The notes under the pieces: model-generated
The model's input: the letters and a program-made list of their open reading frames with translations, nothing else
Told to the model about the DNA's origin: nothing
Databases searched by the model: none
Position numbers and translations under genes: made by a program
Shown: piece after piece, positions 3,777 to 19,743 of the stretch
How the letters are laid out: each line of letters begins with the position of its first letter
How positions within the stretch are numbered: position 1 is the stretch's first letter
NCBI RefSeq assembly: GCF_965641715.1
Contig: NZ_OZ282453.1
DNA from: Escherichia coli
Lineage (GTDB): Bacteria; Pseudomonadota; Gammaproteobacteria; Enterobacterales; Enterobacteriaceae
Reading direction: 5' to 3' (one strand)
DNA: 64,000 nucleotides

Positions 3777-4613
3777 ATGGCGCACGACGAACAATGGCTC
3801 ACCCCACGTCTGCAAACGGCGGCAACGCTGTGTAACCAGACGCCCGCCGCGACGGAATCTCCGCTGTGGCTGGGGGTGGATCTGGGCACCTGCGATGTGG
3901 TGTCGATGGTTGTCGACCGCGACGGTCAGCCAGTGGCGGTATGCCTCGACTGGGCCGATGTGGTTCGCGACGGCATCGTCTGGGATTTCTTCGGCGCTGT
4001 CACCATTGTTCGTCGCCATCTCGACACGCTCGAGCAGCAATTCGGTCGTCGTTTTAGCCATGCGGCGACTTCATTTCCTCCAGGTACGGACCCGCGTATT
4101 TCCATCAACGTGCTGGAATCTGCCGGACTGGAAGTGAGCCATGTGCTGGATGAGCCAACCGCAGTTGCGGATCTGCTGCAACTGGACAACGCCGGTGTAG
4201 TGGATATCGGCGGCGGCACTACCGGCATTGCCATCGTGAAAAAGGGCAAGGTGACGTACTCGGCGGATGAAGCCACCGGCGGACATCACATCTCTCTGAC
4301 TCTCGCCGGAAATCGCCGTATTTCGCTGGAAGAGGCGGAGCAGTACAAGCGCGGTCACGGTGAAGAGATTTGGCCTGCGGTGAAACCGGTGTACGAAAAA
4401 ATGGCGGACATTGTCGCCCGGCATATTGAAGGGCAGGGCATTACTGATTTATGGCTGGCGGGCGGCTCTTGTATGCAACCGGGCGTGGCGGAACTGTTTC
4501 GCAAACAATTCCCGGCGTTACAGGTGCATTTACCGCAGCACAGTTTGTTTATGACCCCGCTGGCGATCGCCAGTAGTGGGCGAGAGAAAGCGGAGGGGCT
4601 ATATGCAAAATGA
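3777..4613 (+). CDS. eutJ: Ethanolamine utilisation chaperone-like protein EutJ (278 aa)
   Basis: Hsp70/actin-fold EutJ translation; overlaps eutG start by 11 nt. Confidence 0.9.
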   Translation: MAHDEQWLTPRLQTAATLCNQTPAATESPLWLGVDLGTCDVVSMVVDRDGQPVAVCLDWADVVRDGIVWDFFGAVTIVRRHLDTLEQQFGRRFSHAATSFPPGTDPRISINVLESAGLEVSHVLDEPTAVADLLQLDNAGVVDIGGGTTGIAIVKKGKVTYSADEATGGHHISLTLAGNRRISLEEAEQYKRGHGEEIWPAVKPVYEKMADIVARHIEGQGITDLWLAGGSCMQPGVAELFRKQFPALQVHLPQHSLFMTPLAIASSGREKAEGLYAK

Positions 4614-8532: not shown

Positions 8533-8627
8533 ATACTGTAGTTATCAGGCGTGGCGCTGGGTGGCTGGGTGTTAGTGGGATTATATCCGGCTGTGTATCC
8601 GGTCGGGGTGATTGGTCTGTATAGCAG

Positions 8628-8648
8628 AAAACCCGGCGCGGGGCCGGG
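8628..8648 (-). terminator. Intrinsic terminator-like hairpin (minus strand) downstream of the 217-aa island ORF
   Basis: aaaacccggcgcggggccggg: GC stem with T-run on minus strand; identical 21-mer recurs at 10317-10337. Confidence 0.45.
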
Positions 8649-8655
8649 TGAACTA

Positions 8656-9309
8656 TCACTCAGGGAACAAGTTGATTTGAAGCAAACTGCCAATGTATTT
8701 ACCAGTGCTTTTAATTTTTCGCTTTGATGGCTTACACGAATTCAGGTTGACACCAGCCTGGCTAGATATTGGCTTGTATTGCCGCTCCGCCAGTACGATC
8801 AGGTCTGCCGCGTCTTTTAGCTTTCCATCGTTAGCCAGTTCCAATGCTCGATCCGCCATTTGCCCGCATTGTTGAATCAGCTTAAGTTGCGATACCTCCA
8901 GTCGCAATTGCTGGATTCGTTCTACCACTTTCGCCCTAATGCGCTTAGTTTCACGCATTCCCATTCTTAATGCCTGGTTGCCAGTAAGTGAGTAAACCTC
9001 TTTTTCTTTCCTGAAGTTTGCGGCTTTACCGTCAGCTTGGACGCGCATTTTATGCGCTTCCAAGAATTCGCCCTCCAATTCATCCCTGATCTTCGCGTTG
9101 AATCTGTCGTTCTTGAGTTCATTTAACCCTTCCGCCTTGCGGATCTGGTTGATTAACTCCAACAATTCATCACTGCGGATACGCCACTCGCTATCAACCT
9201 GTACCAAGTCAAACATGTTGTTGCTCCCGTTTTGCTGCCATAGGGCAACGGCTCGCCAGCCTTTATCACCTCCTTTAGTTGTTGCGATTCTTAACTGAAT
9301 GGTTATCAA
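8656..9309 (-). CDS. Hypothetical island protein, charged/coiled-coil-rich (217 aa as ORF; likely start at internal ATG 9216, 186 aa)
   Basis: ORF translation; GGGAG-type RBS upstream of internal ATG at 9216; no domain recognised. Confidence 0.45.
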   Translation of the reverse strand: MITIQLRIATTKGGDKGWRAVALWQQNGSNNMFDLVQVDSEWRIRSDELLELINQIRKAEGLNELKNDRFNAKIRDELEGEFLEAHKMRVQADGKAANFRKEKEVYSLTGNQALRMGMRETKRIRAKVVERIQQLRLEVSQLKLIQQCGQMADRALELANDGKLKDAADLIVLAERQYKPISSQAGVNLNSCKPSKRKIKSTGKYIGSLLQINLFPE

Positions 9310-9380
9310 AACGCTGCGTTAATATCATTGATATGTATCAAATTTGTTTTGTGACGCGACAATGCCTTGTGAATATCAAT

Positions 9381-9404
9381 AAAAAACCCAGCGCTATGGC
9401 TGGG
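9381..9404 (-). terminator. Intrinsic terminator-like hairpin downstream of HTH-protein gene
   Basis: aaaaaa-CCCAGC-gctatg-GCTGGG on plus strand, i.e. hairpin followed by T6 on minus strand. Confidence 0.45.
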
Positions 9405-9437
9405 CTTCGTTTAATGAGATGGGATTGAAAGCGGGTT

Positions 9438-10220
9438 TTATTTATCTCCCAGATTGTATTCCCAGTTGGGAAGTAAAGTTATCAGCTTGTCACCTTTCTT
9501 GCCTTTGCCGATCTGGTTGCCGTTCTCGTCTTTCTTGTGTGTGATTTCCTGGTCAACCTTAATCAATCCTCTCTCTTTGGCTTGCTCAATCAGTCGGTAG
9601 AATGCGCCGTTACTAATCGGCTTCCGGTTACCGTCGTTATCCATCGCAGTGATTTTCTGTTGCAGTCCGGCGTTATTGCCCAGGTATTCGCCACCTAACG
9701 CCGCCAGTACCTGACACAACATGCCGACACTGTATTTTTTCGGATTTGGGTTAATCCATTCTTTAGCTCCCATCTCTTTTTTGTCGTTGGGCGCTTGTTC
9801 TGCTGCTACTGCGTTCACCTTTTCATCTCCCATCTTGTTACCGCTTGCTGTGCGCTTAATTTCTTCCAGTTCTCTCTCAAGCTCACCTATACGTAATTCA
9901 CGCTCGATAATTACCCCGCGCAGCACATCATCATCACCGTGAGGGCTTGCCTGAATCCAGTTACCATTGGCGAGCGGTAGGAGGGCATAAATTCCGAACA
10001 GGTCACAAAGCGCGGCAAGTGTATTAAAATCAGGTTCCCGGCGTCCCTCCATCCAGTGGCTAACAGCGCCTTTTGTGACTGGTTCGCCTTTCTTGCTTTT
10101 AACACCCATGCGATCCAGTGCGGCGGCTATCTCTTCGCATTTAATGCCACGACCGCCAGCATAGCCCGCCGCTTTCGCGGCCCCTTTGAGGATGTCGTGA
10201 ATTTTCATTTCGTAACTCAT
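9438..10220 (-). CDS. Putative HTH (XRE-like) DNA-binding protein with uncharacterised C-terminal domain (260 aa from second ATG)
   Basis: Helix-turn-helix-like segment ...EEIAAALDRMGVKSKKGEPVTKGAVSHWMEG...; GGGAGA RBS 8 nt upstream of ATG at 10220. Confidence 0.55.
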   Translation of the reverse strand: MSYEMKIHDILKGAAKAAGYAGGRGIKCEEIAAALDRMGVKSKKGEPVTKGAVSHWMEGRREPDFNTLAALCDLFGIYALLPLANGNWIQASPHGDDDVLRGVIIERELRIGELERELEEIKRTASGNKMGDEKVNAVAAEQAPNDKKEMGAKEWINPNPKKYSVGMLCQVLAALGGEYLGNNAGLQQKITAMDNDGNRKPISNGAFYRLIEQAKERGLIKVDQEITHKKDENGNQIGKGKKGDKLITLLPNWEYNLGDK

Positions 10221-10226
10221 AATTTT

Positions 10227-10257
10227 ATCTCCCATCTCATGAACTATGGTGGGAGAT
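10227..10257. promoter_or_regulatory. Inverted repeat ATCTCCCA-N15-TGGGAGAT overlapping RBS/start of the HTH gene (candidate operator)
   Basis: Arms at 10227-10234 and 10250-10257 seen directly in sequence; the left arm coincides with the RBS/first-codon sequence, so arm identity may be partly coding-driven; function inferred. Confidence 0.3.
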
Positions 10258-10316
10258 TAACACGGCGGGCCTGTGGCGGGTAAGTGTAACGGGAGAGAAT
10301 GTTGATTCAGGTCACA

Positions 10317-10337
10317 AAAACCCGGCGCGGGGCCGGG
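10317..10337 (-). terminator. Intrinsic terminator-like hairpin downstream of the 158-aa island ORF (copy 2 of 21-mer)
   Basis: Identical to 8628-8648. Confidence 0.45.
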
Positions 10338-10359
10338 CTGTGTTAGTACGTCGTTGCTC

Positions 10360-10836
10360 TTAGTTCATGAGGAGATCTTTAAATTCGACGCCGTATTCAT
10401 GGGCAATGTCGCCTCTATAGTAGATGTTATCTTTCAGGATATATCCGACGTTTCTCAGGACGTGAGAACACTCTCTTACTGCTGCCTCTTTACCCCTTAA
10501 AACATCCTCCCCGCTAACTTCTTCGCCGCTGTACTTCACTGCGATGTTGTCTGCTGCACGCTCTGCTGCTTCCAGGCAATTAATCTTCACTTTTCCCCGA
10601 TTCTCCCAGGCAAAATCGCGGCCATAAATCCCCATTGCATCAACCATCTTTTGCGCAGTAGTGCGCTCATCCACCCATTCAGTGCGTTCGAACTTCTCGC
10701 CAGCAGCTACCCTTGCCGCCAGTTGTTCGTGTTGAGTCTGTACGGCCGCAGCCTCTTCTTCCCATTTGCCTTGCTCGTTGTATACGATGAAGCCAGTGAT
10801 GACTGCAGCGATTAGTAACTTGTCCAGAAAATTCAT
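10360..10836 (-). CDS. Hypothetical membrane-anchored protein (158 aa, N-terminal hydrophobic helix)
   Basis: ORF translation MNFLDKLLIAAVITGFIVY...; strong AGGAGGA RBS upstream of ATG. Confidence 0.5.
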   Translation of the reverse strand: MNFLDKLLIAAVITGFIVYNEQGKWEEEAAAVQTQHEQLAARVAAGEKFERTEWVDERTTAQKMVDAMGIYGRDFAWENRGKVKINCLEAAERAADNIAVKYSGEEVSGEDVLRGKEAAVRECSHVLRNVGYILKDNIYYRGDIAHEYGVEFKDLLMN

Positions 10837-11089
10837 AGCTTCCTCCTATCTGTTCAATTACCCGGCATCTCTTGCCGTTGAACGTATTAAACAAAATGCC
10901 AGTCAGGGATAAAGCGATCTGCGTCATAAAGTCCATCCCCCATCTCATTGATATTGATGGGAGATTGTTTAATTGGTCAGAAATTAAGCGTTTATGTGCG
11001 CTGCCGGGTATCCACCTCCTATCTGAAGATGGAAAGATGGGTGATATAATGTGATGGCAATTGGTGGATTGCGTGGTTTTTACAATGAT

Positions 11090-11120
11090 AAGGGGCTGGC
11101 GTAATGCTGGCCCCTTTGTT
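11090..11120 (+). terminator. Plus-strand-specific hairpin plus T-run (candidate terminator of a short plus-strand transcript)
   Basis: aggggctggc-gtaat-gctggcccc-tttgttt; stem needs G-U wobble pairs so folds only as plus-strand RNA. Confidence 0.3.
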
Positions 11121-11356
11121 TATCCGGTATCCGGTATCCGGTATAAGCGGGCGTGTATCCGGTAGCGGGGATATGGGCGCGTGTACGTGAAATCTGGCAA
11201 ATTAGCAGGGTAATTGTGAGGGAATTTTTGCGTAGGAGCGTTTGTGGCTGGTAGCTCAAAATTGAGCTTTGCTTTTCATTCAATGACTTAGGTTAATTCT
11301 AGCAAAACGCTAGGATTGAATGTCCGCCAGTCTGCTTCCCCTAGCGTGGGATTTGG

Positions 11357-13723
11357 TCAACGTCTGCGCGGCTGCAAAATTCCTCCGGGTCGTTGTGATT
11401 CACGCTGCATCAGTCGCATCGCTGTGTTTTCTATGGTCTGCTGCAGCGCTTTTGAGTCTTCCTCTGTCCAGCCGTTGTTAGCCTGGATGTTGAACGTATT
11501 GTTCATCGTGATTCCGCCACCGCCTACCAGATCGCGGCCCGGTGTAACTCGTCCACCTTCACCCGGGATCATGTACTGTTTCCCGCCAGTGGATGTAAAT
11601 AGCTCCGGTACTCCGTGCTCCCCGACCCTATAAAGATTGCCACCGTTAACAGCCCCGCCGTTGTAACGAGCGCCAGCCAGTCCAAGCGTTTTGGCGGCAG
11701 CTACGCCAGTAGTAAGCCCGGTAAGTCCAGTGGCCCCAGCGCCGCCCATCGTGGCTACGTTAGCCAGGTATGCAGGAGTGGCCCACGCCGATCCTAATGC
11801 TGTAGCCTCTGCTAGTGCTTTAGCTGTTGCGGCTGCGTTTGCGGCTTCACCAATTAGCTGCTGTTTAACCCACTCAGCACCCATCTGGACAATGCCACCG
11901 ACCACAGAAGACAGGATCGTACTGCCAACGTTGGCAAGTGACTCTTGCAGCGATTGAGTACCGTTTATCAGTCCGGTAAATGCGCTGCCAGCGCCAGACG
12001 ATAACCCATCGACCATATTCCCGATGAGGCCATTTATATCGCTTTGTTTCTTCCACTGCTGCCACTGGAGATCCAGAACCCTTTGTTCATGTGCGATCTC
12101 TTCCTGGCGCAACTGCTCTTCGGTAGCCCCAAGATCTAGAAGCATTTGCTTGCGAACAGCCCATTCATTTTGGATCTTCTGTATTGGGTCAATCTGAGCT
12201 TTCTGCTTATCCTGCTCACTGACAAGACTGTCCCATTTCGCTTTCTGCTTGCGGATGGCTTCAGCTTCATCAATTGCTGCGAGTGTACTTGCTCGCTGTT
12301 TCGCGCTGATCAACCGTTTCTGCTCAGCCGCTTCCAGGTCTTCTACTGCTTTTTTCCGTTTATTGAGCGCCGCTAGTTCGGGATCGTATTTTTCCACCAA
12401 TGAAAGGCCGCTTGCTTCCTTACGTTCGCGTTCTCTTTGTGCCTGTTTGGCTGCCTGCTTAGCGGCGTTTTCTGCTTGTTTGGCTGCTCTTTCTTTCGCC
12501 CTGGTGTTCTCTTCTTCCTTGCGCTTATTCTCTTCTAACTCCTTGTTTTGTTCGCGTAATTTAACGATTTCCTCATGATGCGCCTTTGTCAGCTGGCCTT
12601 CTTTCAGTGCCCGATCTATATCAGCGTTTGCGTTGCCTTTTAGCTGTTCCTGTTTAACTTGCAGATGTTTAATCATCATTTCGCCAGTGGCAATCGCTGC
12701 CGCAGACGCTCCAGCATTCAGAGCTTCATTTAACGCTCTCTGACGTTCTTCTGCTGTTAATGCCTCGTTGCTGTATCGAAGTAGCGCATCAACGTATTTC
12801 TCCAGTTCTGCGCGGCCTGCCGCAGTTGCTGGTTCCATTGCTTTTAGGATGCTCAGAAGGCTTTGCGCTTCATAGGAAGACGGGTTTTTGCGGAACTGCG
12901 CCATAGCGTTATAAAGCGCCATAGCTTCACCCTCTGTGATTCTGTACTTAGCTCCCAGCCCTTCAATGACCGCTGATAACTGTTTGCCAAGCGCTGCACC
13001 GAATGCGCCTTCCTTGCTTAATTTGTTGAGCACTTCACTCAGTGAATTTCCTGACACGCCCAGCGCGTCGAGTTCTCTTGCTACCGTTCCCAGGTCGCCG
13101 CCTTTCATCCATCCTGCATTAGAAAATTCAGTGATAGCCCGGCCCGCTTCCCGCGTTTCTTCCTGGAGTGTTTTTAGCGCCCGCACGGCCTGCTCTTTCA
13201 TTACGGCGGCGGCAATGGCGTTGTTCTGTGTGGCTTCGTAATATGAATCACTGAAAGCGTTAACGCCCTGGGTGGATTTGCCGATCACGGCGTCGATTGA
13301 TGCTAATGCCTCCTTCATCCTTTCAGCGCTATCCGTTGCGTCGTCCATGCTGTCCGTTAGGCTGTTGGCAATCGCCCCGCCAATAGCCATCACCGCCCCC
13401 ATGACCGCACCGCCAGTACCGAAGGCAGCGGCAAGTTGTGCACCCTGCACAGCGAACGCCTGGAGCGCATTACCGCCCATCTGCAATTGAGTGGCAAGGT
13501 CTGCGATCTGGTATGATGCGTTACGGATTGCCGGGGAAAGGTTGGTTTTGACTGCGGCAGACGTTTTGGTCATCTGCGTGTTCAGTTTTTTGACGCCACT
13601 GTCAGCGCGTTTTGCGCCGCGTTCTATACTGTCAAAAGCCTGGTCCGCTTCTTGTTGTGCTGCCAGGAGTTTACCAGTACGGGCGTCGACCTCATAGTAT
13701 ATGGTCCCAAGATTCCCACTCAT
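11357..13723 (-). CDS. Phage tail tape-measure-like protein (788 aa)
   Basis: Long Ala/Gly/Gln-rich coiled-coil protein; C-terminal motif ...GGNLYRVGEHGVPELFTSTGGKQYMIPG... resembles the conserved C-terminal block of siphovirus tape-measure proteins. Confidence 0.6.
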   Translation of the reverse strand: MSGNLGTIYYEVDARTGKLLAAQQEADQAFDSIERGAKRADSGVKKLNTQMTKTSAAVKTNLSPAIRNASYQIADLATQLQMGGNALQAFAVQGAQLAAAFGTGGAVMGAVMAIGGAIANSLTDSMDDATDSAERMKEALASIDAVIGKSTQGVNAFSDSYYEATQNNAIAAAVMKEQAVRALKTLQEETREAGRAITEFSNAGWMKGGDLGTVARELDALGVSGNSLSEVLNKLSKEGAFGAALGKQLSAVIEGLGAKYRITEGEAMALYNAMAQFRKNPSSYEAQSLLSILKAMEPATAAGRAELEKYVDALLRYSNEALTAEERQRALNEALNAGASAAAIATGEMMIKHLQVKQEQLKGNANADIDRALKEGQLTKAHHEEIVKLREQNKELEENKRKEEENTRAKERAAKQAENAAKQAAKQAQRERERKEASGLSLVEKYDPELAALNKRKKAVEDLEAAEQKRLISAKQRASTLAAIDEAEAIRKQKAKWDSLVSEQDKQKAQIDPIQKIQNEWAVRKQMLLDLGATEEQLRQEEIAHEQRVLDLQWQQWKKQSDINGLIGNMVDGLSSGAGSAFTGLINGTQSLQESLANVGSTILSSVVGGIVQMGAEWVKQQLIGEAANAAATAKALAEATALGSAWATPAYLANVATMGGAGATGLTGLTTGVAAAKTLGLAGARYNGGAVNGGNLYRVGEHGVPELFTSTGGKQYMIPGEGGRVTPGRDLVGGGGITMNNTFNIQANNGWTEEDSKALQQTIENTAMRLMQRESQRPGGILQPRRR

Positions 13724-14012
13724 AATATCTTTATCCGCGTTGTGCGGACACCTCCGATTATTCTTTACTCTAATAATTTCACAATGAAACAGTTTATTGC
13801 CGCTTCAGTGGCTTCGTGTTCCGGTTTGCTTCGATCAATCACAAAAAATACAGCTTAATAGAATCAATGGCTTATAAAGTTGTATTAGCTATGTTTCTTC
13901 GTCCGTGCCACTGAAAACCCAGTTTTTCCAATGGAATCAATACTGATATGTATCCATACTGTTTTTCACATAATGTACGTTATGCGCACTACGGGAAACG
14001 TACTGAATTTAT

Positions 14013-14243
14013 TTACTGGTCGCCGTTCAGTTCATGCAGAGTCTGTTCTGGCAATGAATCCAGCCAGTTTTCTGCATCCTCCCTGTAACACTCCAGGATG
14101 CAACGGTTTGTGAAGTTGATGAAAGCGGTCAGTGATTCTGCTTCGTCGTTCCTGTGCGTTCTCCTGGCGTGCTTGCGTAGTCGTTTCGCGTCTGCCAGTT
14201 GGTCATTGAGTATCTTCAGTCTGTCGGCAATATCATCGTTCAT
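14013..14243 (-). CDS. Hypothetical small island protein (76 aa)
   Basis: ORF with GAGGGAGAG RBS upstream of ATG. Confidence 0.4.
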   Translation of the reverse strand: MNDDIADRLKILNDQLADAKRLRKHARRTHRNDEAESLTAFINFTNRCILECYREDAENWLDSLPEQTLHELNGDQ

Positions 14244-14378
14244 GTCGTCTCTCCCTCGCGCGCGCGTCGTACTTGTCCGAAAATTACCCCCATAAAAGCG
14301 CCCCTCATATAGTGCAAAATCCCGGCTGACGCGGATCTCAGTGGGTTTTAGCAGTGAAAACTGACATCAAAAACGGCT

Positions 14379-14426
14379 CGCTAAGGTCCGCTAAGTATCC
14401 GCTATCGTTCGCTAACCCCCCGCTAA
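14379..14426. repeat. Five direct CGCTAA/CGCTAT hexamers phased at 10-11 bp (candidate protein-binding array)
   Basis: Copies at 14379, 14389, 14400, 14410, 14421; one helical turn apart; intergenic. Confidence 0.5.
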
Positions 14427-14430
14427 CCTA

Positions 14431-14796
14431 TTAGATATCGCATCCAACGCTATTGAGCTGGCTATGTATATCGGCGCGAATTAACTTCAGGCGTTTACAA
14501 AATTCGCGTTCTTCCGAATTAAGCTCGCGGCCACCTTGTTTCGAGGCAATGAGCTTGTTGATGGTGGAAAGCGAATATTCACTCCATATACGAAGCATTT
14601 GTCGCTTCATTGGTTGCTCGCTCAATGGTGAGTTTTTCAGGTCTGACACGCGCTCTGCGACGGTTCTTGCGATGCCTTGTACCACTCGTAGTGCCAACAT
14701 GATGATTTTCTCCGGACTTGTGCTAATATAGTTCCCGAACATTGTTTCGAGACTGCTTATCCTGTTTGTCTTGTCCGATTTGTTCATTGGTCGCAT
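14431..14796 (-). CDS. Hypothetical island protein (121 aa)
   Basis: ORF only; weak RBS, so lower confidence. Confidence 0.35.
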   Translation of the reverse strand: MRPMNKSDKTNRISSLETMFGNYISTSPEKIIMLALRVVQGIARTVAERVSDLKNSPLSEQPMKRQMLRIWSEYSLSTINKLIASKQGGRELNSEEREFCKRLKLIRADIHSQLNSVGCDI

Positions 14797-14838
14797 TGTT
14801 AAGTCAGCCGGGGTAATTCCCGGCTTTCTTTTATCCGA

Positions 14839-15381
14839 TCAGTACCGAATCCCTATCGCATTGAATACGCGTTTCCGTTGCTCAGCTTCAGGATCGGCGG
14901 CCATTTCTGGTTCTGGCTCCGGCATAGACGGGGCGGCATCAAAATGCTCAATTTCACGACCGAAATACGAGTTCAGGTCAATACCTGCCGAACTATCCAC
15001 TCCATCAAAATAGCGACGCTGTTCCTCGGTGAGACAGCTACCCAGACGTTCCTCAACCTGCGCCATAAACTCAGCATCCGGTGAGAAGTACTCATCCGGA
15101 GTCGGAGCACCGCTCTGTTTGTGCATCTCCATTTTCTCTGCGTTCGTTTTCAGCCCGGCAATGCGTTTCTCCAGTCCGGCGGCTTTAATAGCGTCAGCAA
15201 CGATTTGTGGGATCTGCGGTTTAATTATTTCGATAACTTCATTGCTGATTAATTTAAACTGGGCCATACGGATCGCTTTAATCTGCTTATTTAACAGTGC
15301 GCGTTCCCCTTCGTTGGCGGTTTTATCACGCTGTGCTACCAGTTCATCGCCTTTGTTTGTCAGTACATCAAATGCGTCCAT
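14839..15381 (-). CDS. Hypothetical island protein (180 aa, acidic C-terminus)
   Basis: ORF with strong GGAGGAGG RBS. Confidence 0.5.
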   Translation of the reverse strand: MDAFDVLTNKGDELVAQRDKTANEGERALLNKQIKAIRMAQFKLISNEVIEIIKPQIPQIVADAIKAAGLEKRIAGLKTNAEKMEMHKQSGAPTPDEYFSPDAEFMAQVEERLGSCLTEEQRRYFDGVDSSAGIDLNSYFGREIEHFDAAPSMPEPEPEMAADPEAEQRKRVFNAIGIRY

Positions 15382-15398
15382 TGTCTTTCCTCCTCCGA

Positions 15399-15725
15399 TT
15401 ATTTAAAAGTGCTTATTGACACGCCGAAACGACGACTTAATTCAAAAAGGAGTCGCGCCTTTGCAGTGCCTTCCATGTCTTCCGGCATTTCAGACTGAAG
15501 TTTATCAGCTACTTCATCAACAAGTGGCCGAACCGTTTCCACGAACTTGTCCGCAATATAATCAGCAGAACGCATCACTTTTTCCTGGAATTCCTCACGG
15601 CGTACCTGGGCGGCTGATTTAGGGGCTGTCGTGCGCTGAAAATAACTGTCTAATGAATGCATGGCATCTGCTCCTTTTACTTTGATTGCTGTTATTTCTT
15701 TAATTGTGTTTGCTTTGATTTTCAT
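15399..15725 (-). CDS. Hypothetical island protein (108 aa)
   Basis: ORF with AAGGA RBS; tightly packed after upstream gene. Confidence 0.5.
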   Translation of the reverse strand: MKIKANTIKEITAIKVKGADAMHSLDSYFQRTTAPKSAAQVRREEFQEKVMRSADYIADKFVETVRPLVDEVADKLQSEMPEDMEGTAKARLLFELSRRFGVSISTFK

Positions 15726-15801
15726 GCTGCCTATTCCTTCAGAAATTGCGGTAGTTTGCTTTTTAAATCAATAAGTTATTTGATAATCTCAGTAGCTGTT
15801 T

Positions 15802-15993
15802 TCATTGGTGGCGAGCGCCTTTGTTTTTATAGAATTCCAAAATCTCAGATCGGATAAACTTAATTCTTGAGCCAATCGGACTGACCGGGACGGGCCAGCC
15901 TTTAATCTTGTTCATCCACCGGAATATTGTCCGACGGGTAACGCCGAATAAAGCTGCTACCTCGTTAACCGTCATTAATTCGCTATCATTCAT
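15802..15993 (-). CDS. AlpA/excisionase-family small HTH regulator (63 aa)
   Basis: Translation ...MTVNEVAALFGVTRRTIFRWMNK... matches AlpA-type prophage regulators; typical partner of P4-type integrases. Confidence 0.6.
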   Translation of the reverse strand: MNDSELMTVNEVAALFGVTRRTIFRWMNKIKGWPVPVSPIGSRIKFIRSEILEFYKNKGARHQ

Positions 15994-16280
15994 GTTCTCA
16001 CCTCAAAAAGTAGCGGTGAGGAAAATATGGAGAAAACCCTCACCGCGCCCTGAATGAAATTAAAGACCAACATTACTGTTGATACTTATTATTATATTCC
16101 TCCTGTCCCTGTTTCACATCTTTTACCATATAGTGAAAGGGGATATTCTGTAATGTTTACAAAACTTTTAATTAGCAAAAAATAATTGCGCATCTCACGT
16201 AATGCAGGGATAATATTACTCAAGGGCTGGTTGCCCTTACTCAAAATGTGATCTATAACTACAACGATCTATTTCACTTC

Positions 16281-16307
16281 CCCGCTTTCTCCGGCGGGAT
16301 TTTTTTG
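16281..16307 (+). terminator. Plus-strand intrinsic terminator-like hairpin within 600-bp noncoding stretch
   Basis: cccgc-tttctccg-gcggg followed by a ttttttt. Confidence 0.4.
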
Positions 16308-17122
16308 CCTGCAATCTGGCACCATTGCGCACATTAAAATTAGATGCCATTTAAAAGCGATATAACGCGTTCTGCCGGGCTTAATTTTGGCTATCCACTT
16401 GGAAGGGTAAGCCTGTTTTGATTCGTCTGGCGTGGAATGGTGCGGCGGTAATATCAGATCTCAGCGTTCTGCGTGGTGGGATGAAATAGCCTGGCAGGAT
16501 TTGCGTGTGGTTTGCTCTCCCAAAAAATGGGGTAATGGCGCTGGCTGGATGGCAGGACTCCGCGCTGATTACTGGATGGCTGAAAATTTAATGAAATCGC
16601 ATCAATTTTAATGCGTCTAAATCGCTCTGTGGCGACGTGAAGTTTTCAGGTAAGCAAGTGTAGCTGTGTGGTGTGTTCATCGCGTTACTGGCACCATTCC
16701 GTTCGAATTTGGCGCTATCAGGATGGTTTGCGGTGGTCGGCGGCGGGGATAAACTTGCTTGAGTGGTCACCTCAGCCTGCTGTGCGTCGTGTGATGGTAC
16801 TGTCTGCACCTGGCTATACGCTGCTTTGCTGCTGTTTCCTGTCTGGTCTGTATACGCGATAAAACCCATCGGCTTTACAGTGAGTGAGTTTTTTGCGCTT
16901 TGCTTTCCATTCGGTTTGCTTACTGCTGCTGTGTGTCTGTGCGGTAGCTCAGAAAGCTGTCGATGATAACCATCACTGCCAGACCGTCTTTTGAGCTGGC
17001 GATTGCTCGAAGTCTTCCGAAGGTCCGCTGGGCTTGTTGCTTGTTTGTGTTCTTTTAAAATGCGCGCCTCTTACTTTCTCTTAAAAAGAAAAAAGGAATA
17101 TACAGATCTCATACTATGTGTG

Positions 17123-17273
17123 TCCCAAATGTCACACGTCATGGCCTGACCTGTATCCCAAATGTCACACGTCACCCTCTGACCTGTATCCCAAATGTCA
17201 CACGTACCTGTGTCCCAAATGTCACACGTCTATTGTTAATTAATTGTTGACCTGTGTCTCAAATGTCACACGT
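17123..17273. repeat. Iteron array: five direct copies of TCCCAAATGTCACACGT (fifth TCTCAAATGTCACACGT)
   Basis: Copies start 17123, 17156, 17189, 17213, 17257; AT-rich block tattgttaattaattgttga between copies 4 and 5. Confidence 0.65.
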
Positions 17274-17338
17274 CTGTTGATGGTTTAAGTAATAAAAAGG
17301 GCCACCATTTTAGGTGACCCATTGATGCGTTTTAGTCG

Positions 17339-18103
17339 TTATCTTGCGTTCTCGACCTGAAAAAGCATTCTGTATTTTCTTGCGTGCTGACCAATAACAT
17401 ATTCCCCGTATGGCTCAATGAGTCCTAACTCAACCAGGATTTTCATCTGGCGAATTACGGTGCGGCGATTCATGCCCCATTCATCAGCTATTTTTGCCTG
17501 GCAAACTTCAGATACATAAGATCCATCATTCTGCTTTCTTGCTGCTGATGCAATGCTGGATAATACGCTCCAGGCTGTAGCTTTAGCTTTATTCTCGCAA
17601 CCACTTCTGACAAATGCCTTACGTGCCGCACCCAAACAGACATAACTGCAATAAATTCCTTTTTCTTCCGTTTGGTATTGTGTCTCTTTATCCTGCATGG
17701 CTTCCGGTTCTTCCGGCGCTTCCTGCTGTGGTGCTGTCTGCGAAGTTTTAGCGGCCATACTGCGTAGCTCGTTCACGATATCAGTAGCTGATTTCTTCTC
17801 GCTTTTAGTTTCCTGCGTGACTGATAAATACTCACCTTGTAACGCCAGGAAGTCAGCGCGGGCGTTTGCCTGGCTTTGTTCTGGTGATTCAGGTTCTGCA
17901 TCGGCAGGTGATGAAATCGGTGATACACGCGCCCAGCCTGTTTTGGCGTTGCATTCCCAGCGATAACCATTAAAGCGGATATCATTCAGGCCATCATCAA
18001 TGGCGCTCCGTACTTCTTCCGGGATCGCGTCGATTTTCTGAAGGCTGTGTTTACCGAGTGATTCGCCTTGCCGTGGGGCGTAGGCGGTTGGTAAAATATT
18101 CAT
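17339..18103 (-). CDS. Putative winged-HTH DNA-binding protein, candidate replication initiator or regulator (254 aa)
   Basis: C-terminal HTH-like segment ...GMNRRTVIRQMKILVELGLIE...; perfect AAGGAGA RBS; iterons immediately 3' of gene. Confidence 0.5.
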   Translation of the reverse strand: MNILPTAYAPRQGESLGKHSLQKIDAIPEEVRSAIDDGLNDIRFNGYRWECNAKTGWARVSPISSPADAEPESPEQSQANARADFLALQGEYLSVTQETKSEKKSATDIVNELRSMAAKTSQTAPQQEAPEEPEAMQDKETQYQTEEKGIYCSYVCLGAARKAFVRSGCENKAKATAWSVLSSIASAARKQNDGSYVSEVCQAKIADEWGMNRRTVIRQMKILVELGLIEPYGEYVIGQHARKYRMLFQVENAR

Positions 18104-18349
18104 GTGGGATTTCTCCTTTTTACTTGTTTCCCATATCGCCCGGATTGGTTAGCGGCCTTCCGGGCTTTTTGTTGCGTTGATCCTATTTTCGATCCCCGGA
18201 TTTTTTATTACAAACTTGGCTTAATCATTGATTTTATTGGTATAGCTGTATAAAAGGATAACAGGATAAAAGGGTGATAGATTGTGTAACCTGTTAACCT
18301 TTTATACCAGTAAGGCGAAAGAAAAGCCGGACGAATCCGGCCTTATAGT

Positions 18350-19555
18350 TCACGGCTCCAGCGGATTACCGCCACCAGCCAATATCTGGTCGATGGCGTC
18401 GCTGTAGTCCTGCATCATGGCCCGCCGTTGCTTCAGATAGGCCGCCTGGTTATAAACGCCGCGCACACCTTTCGGAACGTGGGCCAGTTGGATTTCGATC
18501 CAGTCTGGTGAGTATCTGCCGTACTCGTTAAGTGCGGTTGAAAAGGTGGTTCGCCAGCCGTGACCAGTGGCTATCGACTTGTATCCGATACGCTCCAGGG
18601 CTTTAAGGATGGCACTGGCTGAAAGTGGCTTATCCATGAATCGACCAGGGAACACAAAAGCACTGTATCCGCTGCGGGTAAACTGGTCCTGTAATAGCTC
18701 GACCGCCTGCCGGGATAGCGGGACCACATGCGGGCGGCGGGCCTTCATGACTTCAGCGGGTAGGGTGATGGTTGCCGATTCCAGATCTACCCACTCCCAG
18801 CGCATTAAACGCAGTTCTGCGGTCCTTAGGGCGCTTAATATAAGCAAACGTATTGCCGTCTGAATCTGAACGCTCCCGGCTCTCTCAAGGGCTTTGTAGA
18901 AGGCCGGGATTTCGTTAATTTGTATCCATGCGTTATGGCCTGGGCGTCGGGCTTTCAATGCCGTGTCCAGATCTGCAACCGGATTTCGGTTAACCAGTTC
19001 AGTGATAACGGCAAATTTGAAGATTTCCCCTATACGCTGCCGTAATTTTCGGGCCTGTTCCGGCGCGGTGCGCTCTTTCTTCTGAAGCAATGCCAGCACG
19101 TCACGGGCCGTTATATCGACAATCGACCGCTTGCCAAGTACCGGATAAACATCTTTCTCCAGTGCCGATCTAACTTGTTTCGTGTAAGACTCAGACCAAC
19201 CGCTCACTCTGGTAGCAAACCAGTCTTCCGCTACCGTCTTAAAACTTGCCGCCATGTTGAGCGCATCAATGGCTTTCTCCTTGCGCGCTTCTTCCATTGG
19301 GTCAATTCCCTGGGCGATGAGTAAACGGCTCTCTGTGGCGCGTTTACGTGCTTCCTTCAAGGTAATCAGCGGATATACCCCAATAGCCTGTAACCGCTCT
19401 TTCTTGTCTATCCAGTACCGGAATCGCCAGTATTTGCTGCCATTGGGATGTACCAGCAAGAACAGGCCAGGTGTCTGTGAATCGGTGAGTTTGTAGGGCT
19501 TGTCCTTCGGCTGGGCGGCCTCTATGCCCTTTGCTGTCAGTGGTGTCTTGCTCAA
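18350..19555 (-). CDS. Tyrosine-type site-specific integrase, P4-like family (401 aa, TTG start)
   Basis: Translation ...GLFLLVHPNGSKYWRFRYWIDKKERLQAIGVYP... typical N-terminal arm-binding region of P4-type integrases; located at island edge. Confidence 0.85.
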   Translation of the reverse strand: MSKTPLTAKGIEAAQPKDKPYKLTDSQTPGLFLLVHPNGSKYWRFRYWIDKKERLQAIGVYPLITLKEARKRATESRLLIAQGIDPMEEARKEKAIDALNMAASFKTVAEDWFATRVSGWSESYTKQVRSALEKDVYPVLGKRSIVDITARDVLALLQKKERTAPEQARKLRQRIGEIFKFAVITELVNRNPVADLDTALKARRPGHNAWIQINEIPAFYKALERAGSVQIQTAIRLLILSALRTAELRLMRWEWVDLESATITLPAEVMKARRPHVVPLSRQAVELLQDQFTRSGYSAFVFPGRFMDKPLSASAILKALERIGYKSIATGHGWRTTFSTALNEYGRYSPDWIEIQLAHVPKGVRGVYNQAAYLKQRRAMMQDYSDAIDQILAGGGNPLEP

Positions 19556-19743
19556 AACCGGATACCTCGATCTAACGACTCGATAACCCCGCTCATGTAT
19601 CCGTCGCGTTCGGTTGCGTTCGGCAGGATAAGTAACGGGCGTATTAAGTGGAACACCTTACAGGACAAGGGATAACGATGAAATAGAATTGTTCGAATGC
19701 TGTGAAAAATGTTACTCATCACTTCTTCCTGAGGGAACGACTT

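Follow-up and report, generated by a model that had tools for sequence, protein, structure and literature searches.

How small-terminase rings choose their own DNA is still poorly defined, and we know of no discrete recognition site for terminases of the Sf6 type. In phages lambda and P1, multiple short terminase-recognition repeats are located beside the cutting site. Lambda cosB (R3-I1-R2-R1, the gpNu1 sites) lies directly upstream of the small-terminase gene, with R sites of 16 bp that have mixed orientation and need IHF, and the pac site of P1 consists of seven TGATCA/G hexamers, which are Dam sites in two clusters. Direct repeats of about 10.5 bp that occupy one helix face and are bound cooperatively are also known from the P2 Cox, 186 Apl and P22 Xis arrays and from OmpR/PhoB-type sites, where they are found at att sites or defined promoters.

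The closest described system is the pac region of phages SPP1 and SF6 (boxA/boxB/boxC; pacL-pacC-pacR), which is bound by the G1P ring. In SPP1, sets of direct repeats span promoters and the start of the gene encoding the small terminase subunit (TerS), with short repeats immediately upstream of this gene and running into it (PMC4737164). The TerS rings of SPP1 and SF6 measure about 90 Å across, and the distance between adjacent helix-turn-helix (HTH) motifs, about one B-DNA turn, favours wrapping of the DNA around the ring; the complex of TerS with pac also reduces transcription of the terminase operon (PMC4737164). Satellites can also encode a TerS that redirects the packaging of their helper, as is the case for SaPI TerS and for pac-type PICIs (strategy (iii) in PMC11417361).

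The locus analyzed here is a phased array of short direct repeats in a phage satellite of Escherichia coli, located in a window of 64,000 nucleotides (the window is the whole stretch of DNA that was analyzed). In related satellites the array likewise stands immediately upstream of a TerS gene, and an HTH ring with wrapped DNA and an effect on terminase transcription is proposed for it as for SPP1 and SF6. It differs from their pac regions in that the satellite TerS belongs to the Sf6 type (PF20901) and in that the array is more regular, with five to seven near-identical boxes at strict 10/11-bp spacing. Furthermore, its carrier is a satellite and not a phage, the window has no terminase gene, and binding in the satellite is a prediction. 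With lambda cosB and P1 pac it shares the multiple short repeats. Unlike the lambda R sites, which need IHF, the array has no IHF consensus around it (14200-14500, up to one mismatch), and unlike the P1 hexamers its boxes contain no GATC. In contrast to the arrays of the Cox, Apl, Xis and OmpR/PhoB type, it has no att site within 5 kb and no recognizable promoter.

The satellites carrying the array resemble SaPIs and pac-type PICIs in being small integrative elements with int, an AlpA-like gene, rep with iterons and their own TerS gene, and in having no large terminase. The presence of an own TerS without a large terminase implies a hijack of the helper motor towards a satellite-specific signal. 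They differ from SaPIs and PICIs in forming a narrow E. coli clade with a predicted (mEp021-like) helper, and some members, including the one in the window, possess a tape-measure-like gene. Literature searches yielded no description of this satellite family.

Structure of the island and of the array

The island extends from about 8533 to 19701 in the window, is inserted between eutA and eutB and is a CPZ-55-type phage satellite. On the - strand it carries, in this order, an intZ-type tyrosine integrase at the eutB-proximal island end (18350-19555), a 254-aa HTH protein with weak PHROG matches to replication initiation proteins (17339-18103), a 63-aa AlpA/excisionase-like HTH protein (15802-15993) and small ORFs of 108, 180 and 121 aa. 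These are followed by the array, a 76-aa ORF (14013-14243) and a 788-aa tape-measure-like gene (11357-13723). The 121-aa ORF directly upstream of the array (14431-14796) belongs to a small protein family that every island of both types encodes, whether it has the array or not, and gave no match in Pfam, PHROG and NCBIfam searches. The tape-measure-like gene matched phrog_1538 (E=8e-112), and its best phage matches were mEp021-like E. coli siphophages with 52-60% identity.

Five copies of TGTRTCCCAAATGTCACACGT with a 33-bp period are located directly downstream of the Rep-like gene (17119-17285). These iterons are likely the replication origin of the island. The same iteron set is carried by the satellite of strain PEC145 (L003 14142-14229).

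The sole promoter-like site on the gene strand near the array module was detected at 16088-16117 (- strand, GTGAAA-18-AATAAT), upstream of the AlpA-like gene, consistent with one operon that starts at the AlpA-like gene and continues across the array region. A module of 2.5 kb at 8650-11176 encodes a 217-aa anti-repressor-like protein, a 265-aa HTH protein and a 158-aa ORF and is missing from the two related islands L002 and L003. It is flanked by similar 31-nt sequences containing GTATCCGG at 8582-8612 and 11142-11172. Identical 21-nt GC-rich hairpin-like repeats at 8628-8648 and 10317-10337 and 3.4 copies of TATCCGG at 11121-11144 were also identified in this region. An inserted or tandem element is one possible origin of the module, a relic of an att or arm site another.

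The array occupies 14379-14426. On the + strand the hexamer CGCTAA starts at 14379, 14389, 14410 and 14421 and CGCTAT at 14400. The start-to-start distances are therefore 10, 11, 10 and 11 bp, as a preliminary description of this DNA had claimed, and give a double unit of 21 bp (TTAGCGRRCGATAGCGGRTAC). Because the nearby genes are all on the - strand, the boxes read TTAGCG or ATAGCG along the direction of transcription, with TAGCG as their core. The placement given in that description was also correct: a gap of 4 nt lies between the last + strand box (14421-14426) and the 121-aa ORF stop codon (14431-14433), and the first box is located 135 bp from the ATG (14243) of the 76-aa ORF.

The hexamer as such is not over-represented in the window (73 matches against 61 +/- 8 expected); it is the phased cluster that stands out. 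In 300 first-order-Markov simulations of 64 kb, chains of hexamers with at most one mismatch and steps of 10 or 11 bp were searched. The longest chain had three members in 280 runs and four in 19, and a chain of five was found in 0 of the 300 simulations. Since the same alternating 11/10-bp spacing recurs in diverged relatives, chance and base composition, the latter named earlier as a possible source of the pattern, can be excluded as the cause of the array.

Stop codons are present in all of the boxes: each has TAG on the - strand, and each except the CGCTAT box has TAA on the + strand. The 10/11-bp spacing places these stops in two of the three reading frames of each strand, which is probably a side effect of the box sequence.

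The array and TerS genes in related satellites

In PEC145 the segment homologous to the array region is located between a cargo gene encoding a peptidyl-prolyl isomerase (PPIase) and a gene annotated as 'terminase small subunit-like'. The 214-aa protein encoded by the latter matched phrog_1482 (E=6.5e-16) and the Pfam family PF20901 (Sf6_terminase), and a profile of the TerS family matched the structure of the Sf6 gene 1 protein (3HEF, E=1e-9, residues 9-122). As judged from these profile comparisons, the gene downstream of the array in the relatives is a genuine Sf6-type TerS gene. The cargo gene of PEC145 (L003 9166-9666, PPIase B-like) is inserted between the gene of the 121-aa family and the array, and an ISKpn26 copy and an HNH endonuclease gene are situated further upstream.

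Contigs encoding 11 of 20 database TerS homologues, 64-93% identical to the PEC145 protein, were examined with a register-aware box scan. One array per island was detected in five distinct lineages (PEC145/L003, L081/82, L076/77, L083-86 and L087/88), which span two integration sites, one between eutA and eutB and the other between rssA and ychJ. In the satellites at the rssA-ychJ site a DEAD-box helicase gene adjoins the TerS module. In all five lineages the array was on the strand of the TerS gene, 95-105 bp upstream of its ATG, and consisted of five to seven boxes with strictly alternating 11/10-bp spacing. The box core was TAGCG, with the variants TAACG, TAGTG and TAGCA.

The last box was followed after 27-28 bp, including a T-rich tract, by a conserved CTAAAACC in all array-bearing lineages. 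This element opens an 80-bp leader that reaches the ribosome-binding site of the TerS gene. On the other side of the array the lineages had different genes (a gene of the 121-aa family, the PPIase gene, or a 78-aa or 100-aa gene), while the link to the TerS start was constant. The array is thus independent of its upstream neighbour.

Box positions were conserved better than the sequences between them: 19 of 25 box columns were invariant over the five lineages against 7 of 22 spacer columns. These results agree with the earlier general idea of a cooperative binding array on one helix face, which the comparison of sequences supports. The DNA-binding region of TerS (residues 12-70) was almost invariant in all lineages, as was the box core. 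The integrases, like the AlpA-like and Rep proteins, differed from one island type to the other. The box cores and their exact phasing were kept across lineages in which TerS is only 64-68% identical, which argues for selection on the boxes.

At least three other terminase-bearing lineages possessed the leader without a TAGCG array (L075/L078/L079, L091/L093 and L092), and the DNA-binding region of their TerS was nearly identical. The array therefore appears to be dispensable or accessory to TerS, unless these islands are defective; several of them carry IS605-type insertions or integrase fragments. The TAGCG array was thus absent from some islands with the cognate TerS, whereas a pac site would be expected wherever that TerS occurs. 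The preliminary description had named missing conservation in homologous islands as a ground for refutation, and the outcome is divided, since the common CPZ-55-type islands have no array and 5 of the 9 distinct terminase-bearing lineages sampled have kept it. The proteins common to all intact array-bearing islands were TerS, its partner of 108 or 106 aa and a few small families, all of which were also encoded by array-less islands. The 108-aa partner gave no match in Pfam.

A different repeat was found in L094, a relative at the eut site. It has four copies of AGGTTT at exactly 11 bp in the position of the array (3895-4000), and its TerS alone departs from the others at three positions of the N-terminal arm that are invariant elsewhere (GRPIKYNQQR against GRPTKYTQRR). 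This joint change of repeat and TerS arm is suggestive of co-variation, seen in a single lineage.

Remnant of the terminase module in the window

The preliminary description had missed the context of the array, which is the upstream module of a small-terminase gene that was lost from the island. In PEC145 and L081 the sequence upstream of the terminase gene shares about 80% identity with 14282-14442 of the window. Downstream of the array the window has kept the conserved leader that extends towards the terminase start codon (14294-14378, - strand, containing CAGTTTTCACTGCTAAAACC and, further on, ATCCGCG followed by CAGCCGGGATTTTGCACTATATGAGGGG). The same leader was present in the terminase-bearing relatives L075, L078 and L091-L094, which have no TAGCG array. 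The leader RNA gave no Rfam match, no conserved fold and no covariation, and explanations at the RNA level were dropped.

The leader is followed by a relic of the TerS start (14240-14293, - strand), which consists of the ATG and two codons (ATGGGGG) homologous to the start of the PEC145 TerS gene. Beyond these codons the window continues with common-type sequence, namely the stretch found there after the stop codon of the 121-aa-family gene (TAATTTTCGGACAAG). The fusion, which joined the terminase ribosome-binding site and start codon to this sequence, has created a mini-ORF of 17 codons (MGVIFGQVRRAREGETT, followed by a stop codon), whose TGA overlaps the ATG of the 76-aa ORF (ATGA), and this overlap could allow translational coupling.

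L002, an island of the common type, has no array, and only 38 bp separate its 121-aa-family gene from the 76-aa gene. The segment of the window that is unmatched in L002 (14287-14548, - strand) is a mosaic in which array and leader are flanked by the 3' end of the 121-aa gene on one side and by the terminase ATG on the other. Neither TerS nor its downstream 108-aa partner is encoded anywhere in the 64-kb window, and DNA searches of two complete genomes with the same arrangement revealed no TerS homologue. Because array, leader and TerS ATG are kept and TerS is gone, the array of the window represents the upstream module of the lost terminase gene. For the window itself, the main result is that an odd intergenic segment is explained as a mosaic relic of this module.

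Possible functions of the array

Of the explanations considered, the best supported is that the array is a docking site for the terminase ring of the satellite, that is, a pac-type signal, which would have been orphaned in the window. In its favour are the constant position upstream of the TerS gene in five lineages, the near-invariance of both the box core and the DNA-binding region of TerS, the joint change in L094, and the SPP1 precedent. Our confidence in this reading is somewhat below even, and both TerS as the binder and packaging as the function are predicted from sequence comparisons. The N-terminal HTH domains of the TerS ring would follow each other at intervals of about one B-DNA turn. 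With TAGCG boxes recurring every 10-11 bp, five to seven of them would then meet neighbouring TerS subunits, and the DNA would wrap around the ring. The complex of TerS and DNA would recruit the large terminase of the helper phage, leading to a cut nearby and to packaging of the satellite. The same complex may damp transcription into the terminase gene, as in SPP1.

In the window, recombination or deletion would have taken away the terminase gene together with its 108-aa partner and fused array, leader and ATG to the 76-aa and tape-measure genes. The orphan array would be active only when a matching TerS is supplied in trans and would otherwise be a relic.

The box spacing fits the separation of one turn between the DNA-binding domains of TerS rings, a geometry that comes from the SPP1 and SF6 proteins (PMC4737164). 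Against the docking reading, the isolated DNA-binding domain of SF6 and SPP1 TerS showed little specificity for the repeats (PMC4737164). The window also has the array without TerS, of which only the ATG and two codons are left, and adjacency to a terminase gene is historical there. A further point against it is that the pac site of P22 is located inside the TerS gene and not upstream of it.

If the docking reading holds, the array would join the terminase recognition repeats, an already known type of site. It would be an unusually clean substrate for the DNA-wrapping model, situated beside a terminase gene of solved fold. It would also define a packaging signal for a small family of E. coli satellites at the eut operon (the CPZ-55 site) and at the rssA-ychJ site.

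An extension of the docking reading, which we consider improbable, is that the TerS-less island of the window keeps a working packaging signal. It would then be mobilized by the TerS of a co-resident satellite, or of a helper that acquired one, as a 'satellite of a satellite' riding the same helper (mEp021-like) particles. Should this be true, an Sf6-type terminase ring would for the first time have a recognition code defined at the sequence level, in which each subunit takes one box.

A regulatory function is the next candidate, and we regard it as rather unlikely. The array would be an operator or activator array for a regulator encoded by the helper or the island, binding tandem sites on one helix face like OmpR/PhoB-type regulators or P2 Cox. 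It would switch the terminase or late genes, which in the window would be the 76-aa and tape-measure genes. With a fixed 27-28 bp between it and CTAAAACC, the last box would fall at about -43 if TAAAAC directed a start. Some relatives do without the array, as is often the case for accessory regulatory inputs, and the module has been kept in front of other genes after the loss of the terminase.

However, a scan for sigma-70 promoters and terminators in 14244-14430 found none, and the best -10 candidate (TAAAAC/TAAAAA) has no critical final T. A promoter is also not needed there in the common island type, whose 76-aa gene comes 38 bp after its neighbour without the module. Moreover, no regulator of the islands co-varied with the array, as the AlpA-like proteins differ and the 121-aa family occurs with and without it, and the single array per island means that a second operator is absent.

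We regard it as quite unlikely that the array serves some other purpose, or none, in the window. It might then be the site of a DNA-bending protein of the host or helper, or a decaying hitch-hiker produced when a 21-bp duplication slipped. Such a view would be in line with its rarity, since the array or an 81%-identical copy was found in only 3 of 5426 complete E. coli genomes, with the empty viral, species-representative and metagenome scans described below, and with its loss in several relatives. It is opposed by the box cores and phasing that were maintained while TerS diverged to 64-68% identity. OxyR-type sites (an ATAG…CTAT dyad) and other host-factor motifs were considered and dropped, as all boxes point in the same direction.

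Several binders had been proposed in the preliminary description, including the adjacent AlpA-like protein and recombination-directionality factors acting on arm-type sites. A role of the array in excision through such proteins is very improbable. Phased direct repeats are typical of Xis/Cox/Apl-type proteins and the AlpA-like gene is 1.4 kb from the array, but each island end is about 5.3-5.8 kb away from it. Between the two array-sharing island types, the AlpA-like proteins are barely related (21% identity over 34 aa), and the array is missing in about 240 genomes that have the same AlpA-like gene (98% identical in L002). The array is therefore independent of AlpA. ParB-like binding found no support either, as no Par proteins were identified among the island ORFs with PHROGs and NCBIfam.

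The 254-aa Rep-like protein, which had also been suggested as a binder, has its own iterons at 17119-17285, a better candidate for the origin than the TAGCG array. The islands of the rssA type encode a different Rep (DnaD_N/HTH_36) and contain 3.5 copies of the 22-bp iteron CCCCTACCGCCAGACGGTAGCC inside the rep gene (L076 11729-11808), so that the iterons follow the Rep type and the TAGCG array, which is constant across both Rep types, does not. That the array itself consists of origin iterons with a 21-bp period bound by the island initiator is scarcely credible: although 2.5-3.5 units with a period of 21-22 bp are typical of iteron origins and TRF reported a 21-bp unit in PEC145, better iterons exist in each island type next to or within rep, 2.9 kb separate the array from the rep-like gene, and 14200-14500 has no DnaA consensus (up to one mismatch) and at most 60% AT in any 30-bp window.

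Probable helper phage

The best phage match of the satellite TerS was in the mEp021-like group, with 33% identity in the N-terminal half. Since the tape-measure gene of the window also finds its best matches in this phage group, the sequence similarities indicate that the satellites probably exploit mEp021-like temperate siphophages as helpers. A satellite with its own tape measure is unusual, and the match of the 788-aa gene points to the helper group.

The first 50,000 of the 52,961 bp of mEp013, the region before its TerS gene and the 541 bp that precede the TerS gene of mEp021 contained no phased TAGCG array. Mimicry of a helper signal was thus rejected as an explanation, and the signal would be specific for the satellites.

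Distribution of the island and of the array

Of 5426 complete E. coli genomes, about 242 had an island of this family. Only two of them carried the 221-bp surroundings of the array unchanged, and one more, that of strain PEC145, had a copy with 81% identity. BLAST of a 176-bp segment against 50,697 phage records gave no match, and exact-pattern scans of IMG/VR with a four-box pattern and a leader pattern were also negative. A relaxed four-box pattern matched 71 times in 100,044 species-representative genomes, all in unrelated taxa and none in Enterobacteriaceae. The 95 matches of the TAGCG four-box pattern in JGI metagenomes included none with the shared segment or a TerS homologue, and they were set aside as unrelated tandem repeats or chance.

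Viral contigs searched with the TerS alignment for related loci yielded one distant match only. In an exhaustive search of 1.84 billion protein representatives, the satellite TerS formed a single cluster at 50% identity, so that boxes and DNA-binding domain could be compared only within this narrow family. If the docking reading holds, the array would be a marker of the satellite family, which points to mEp021-like phages as helpers. Many of the distant matches to the DNA-binding domain of TerS carried this domain four times in tandem within about 300 aa, in effect as an array of covalently linked terminase-type HTH units.
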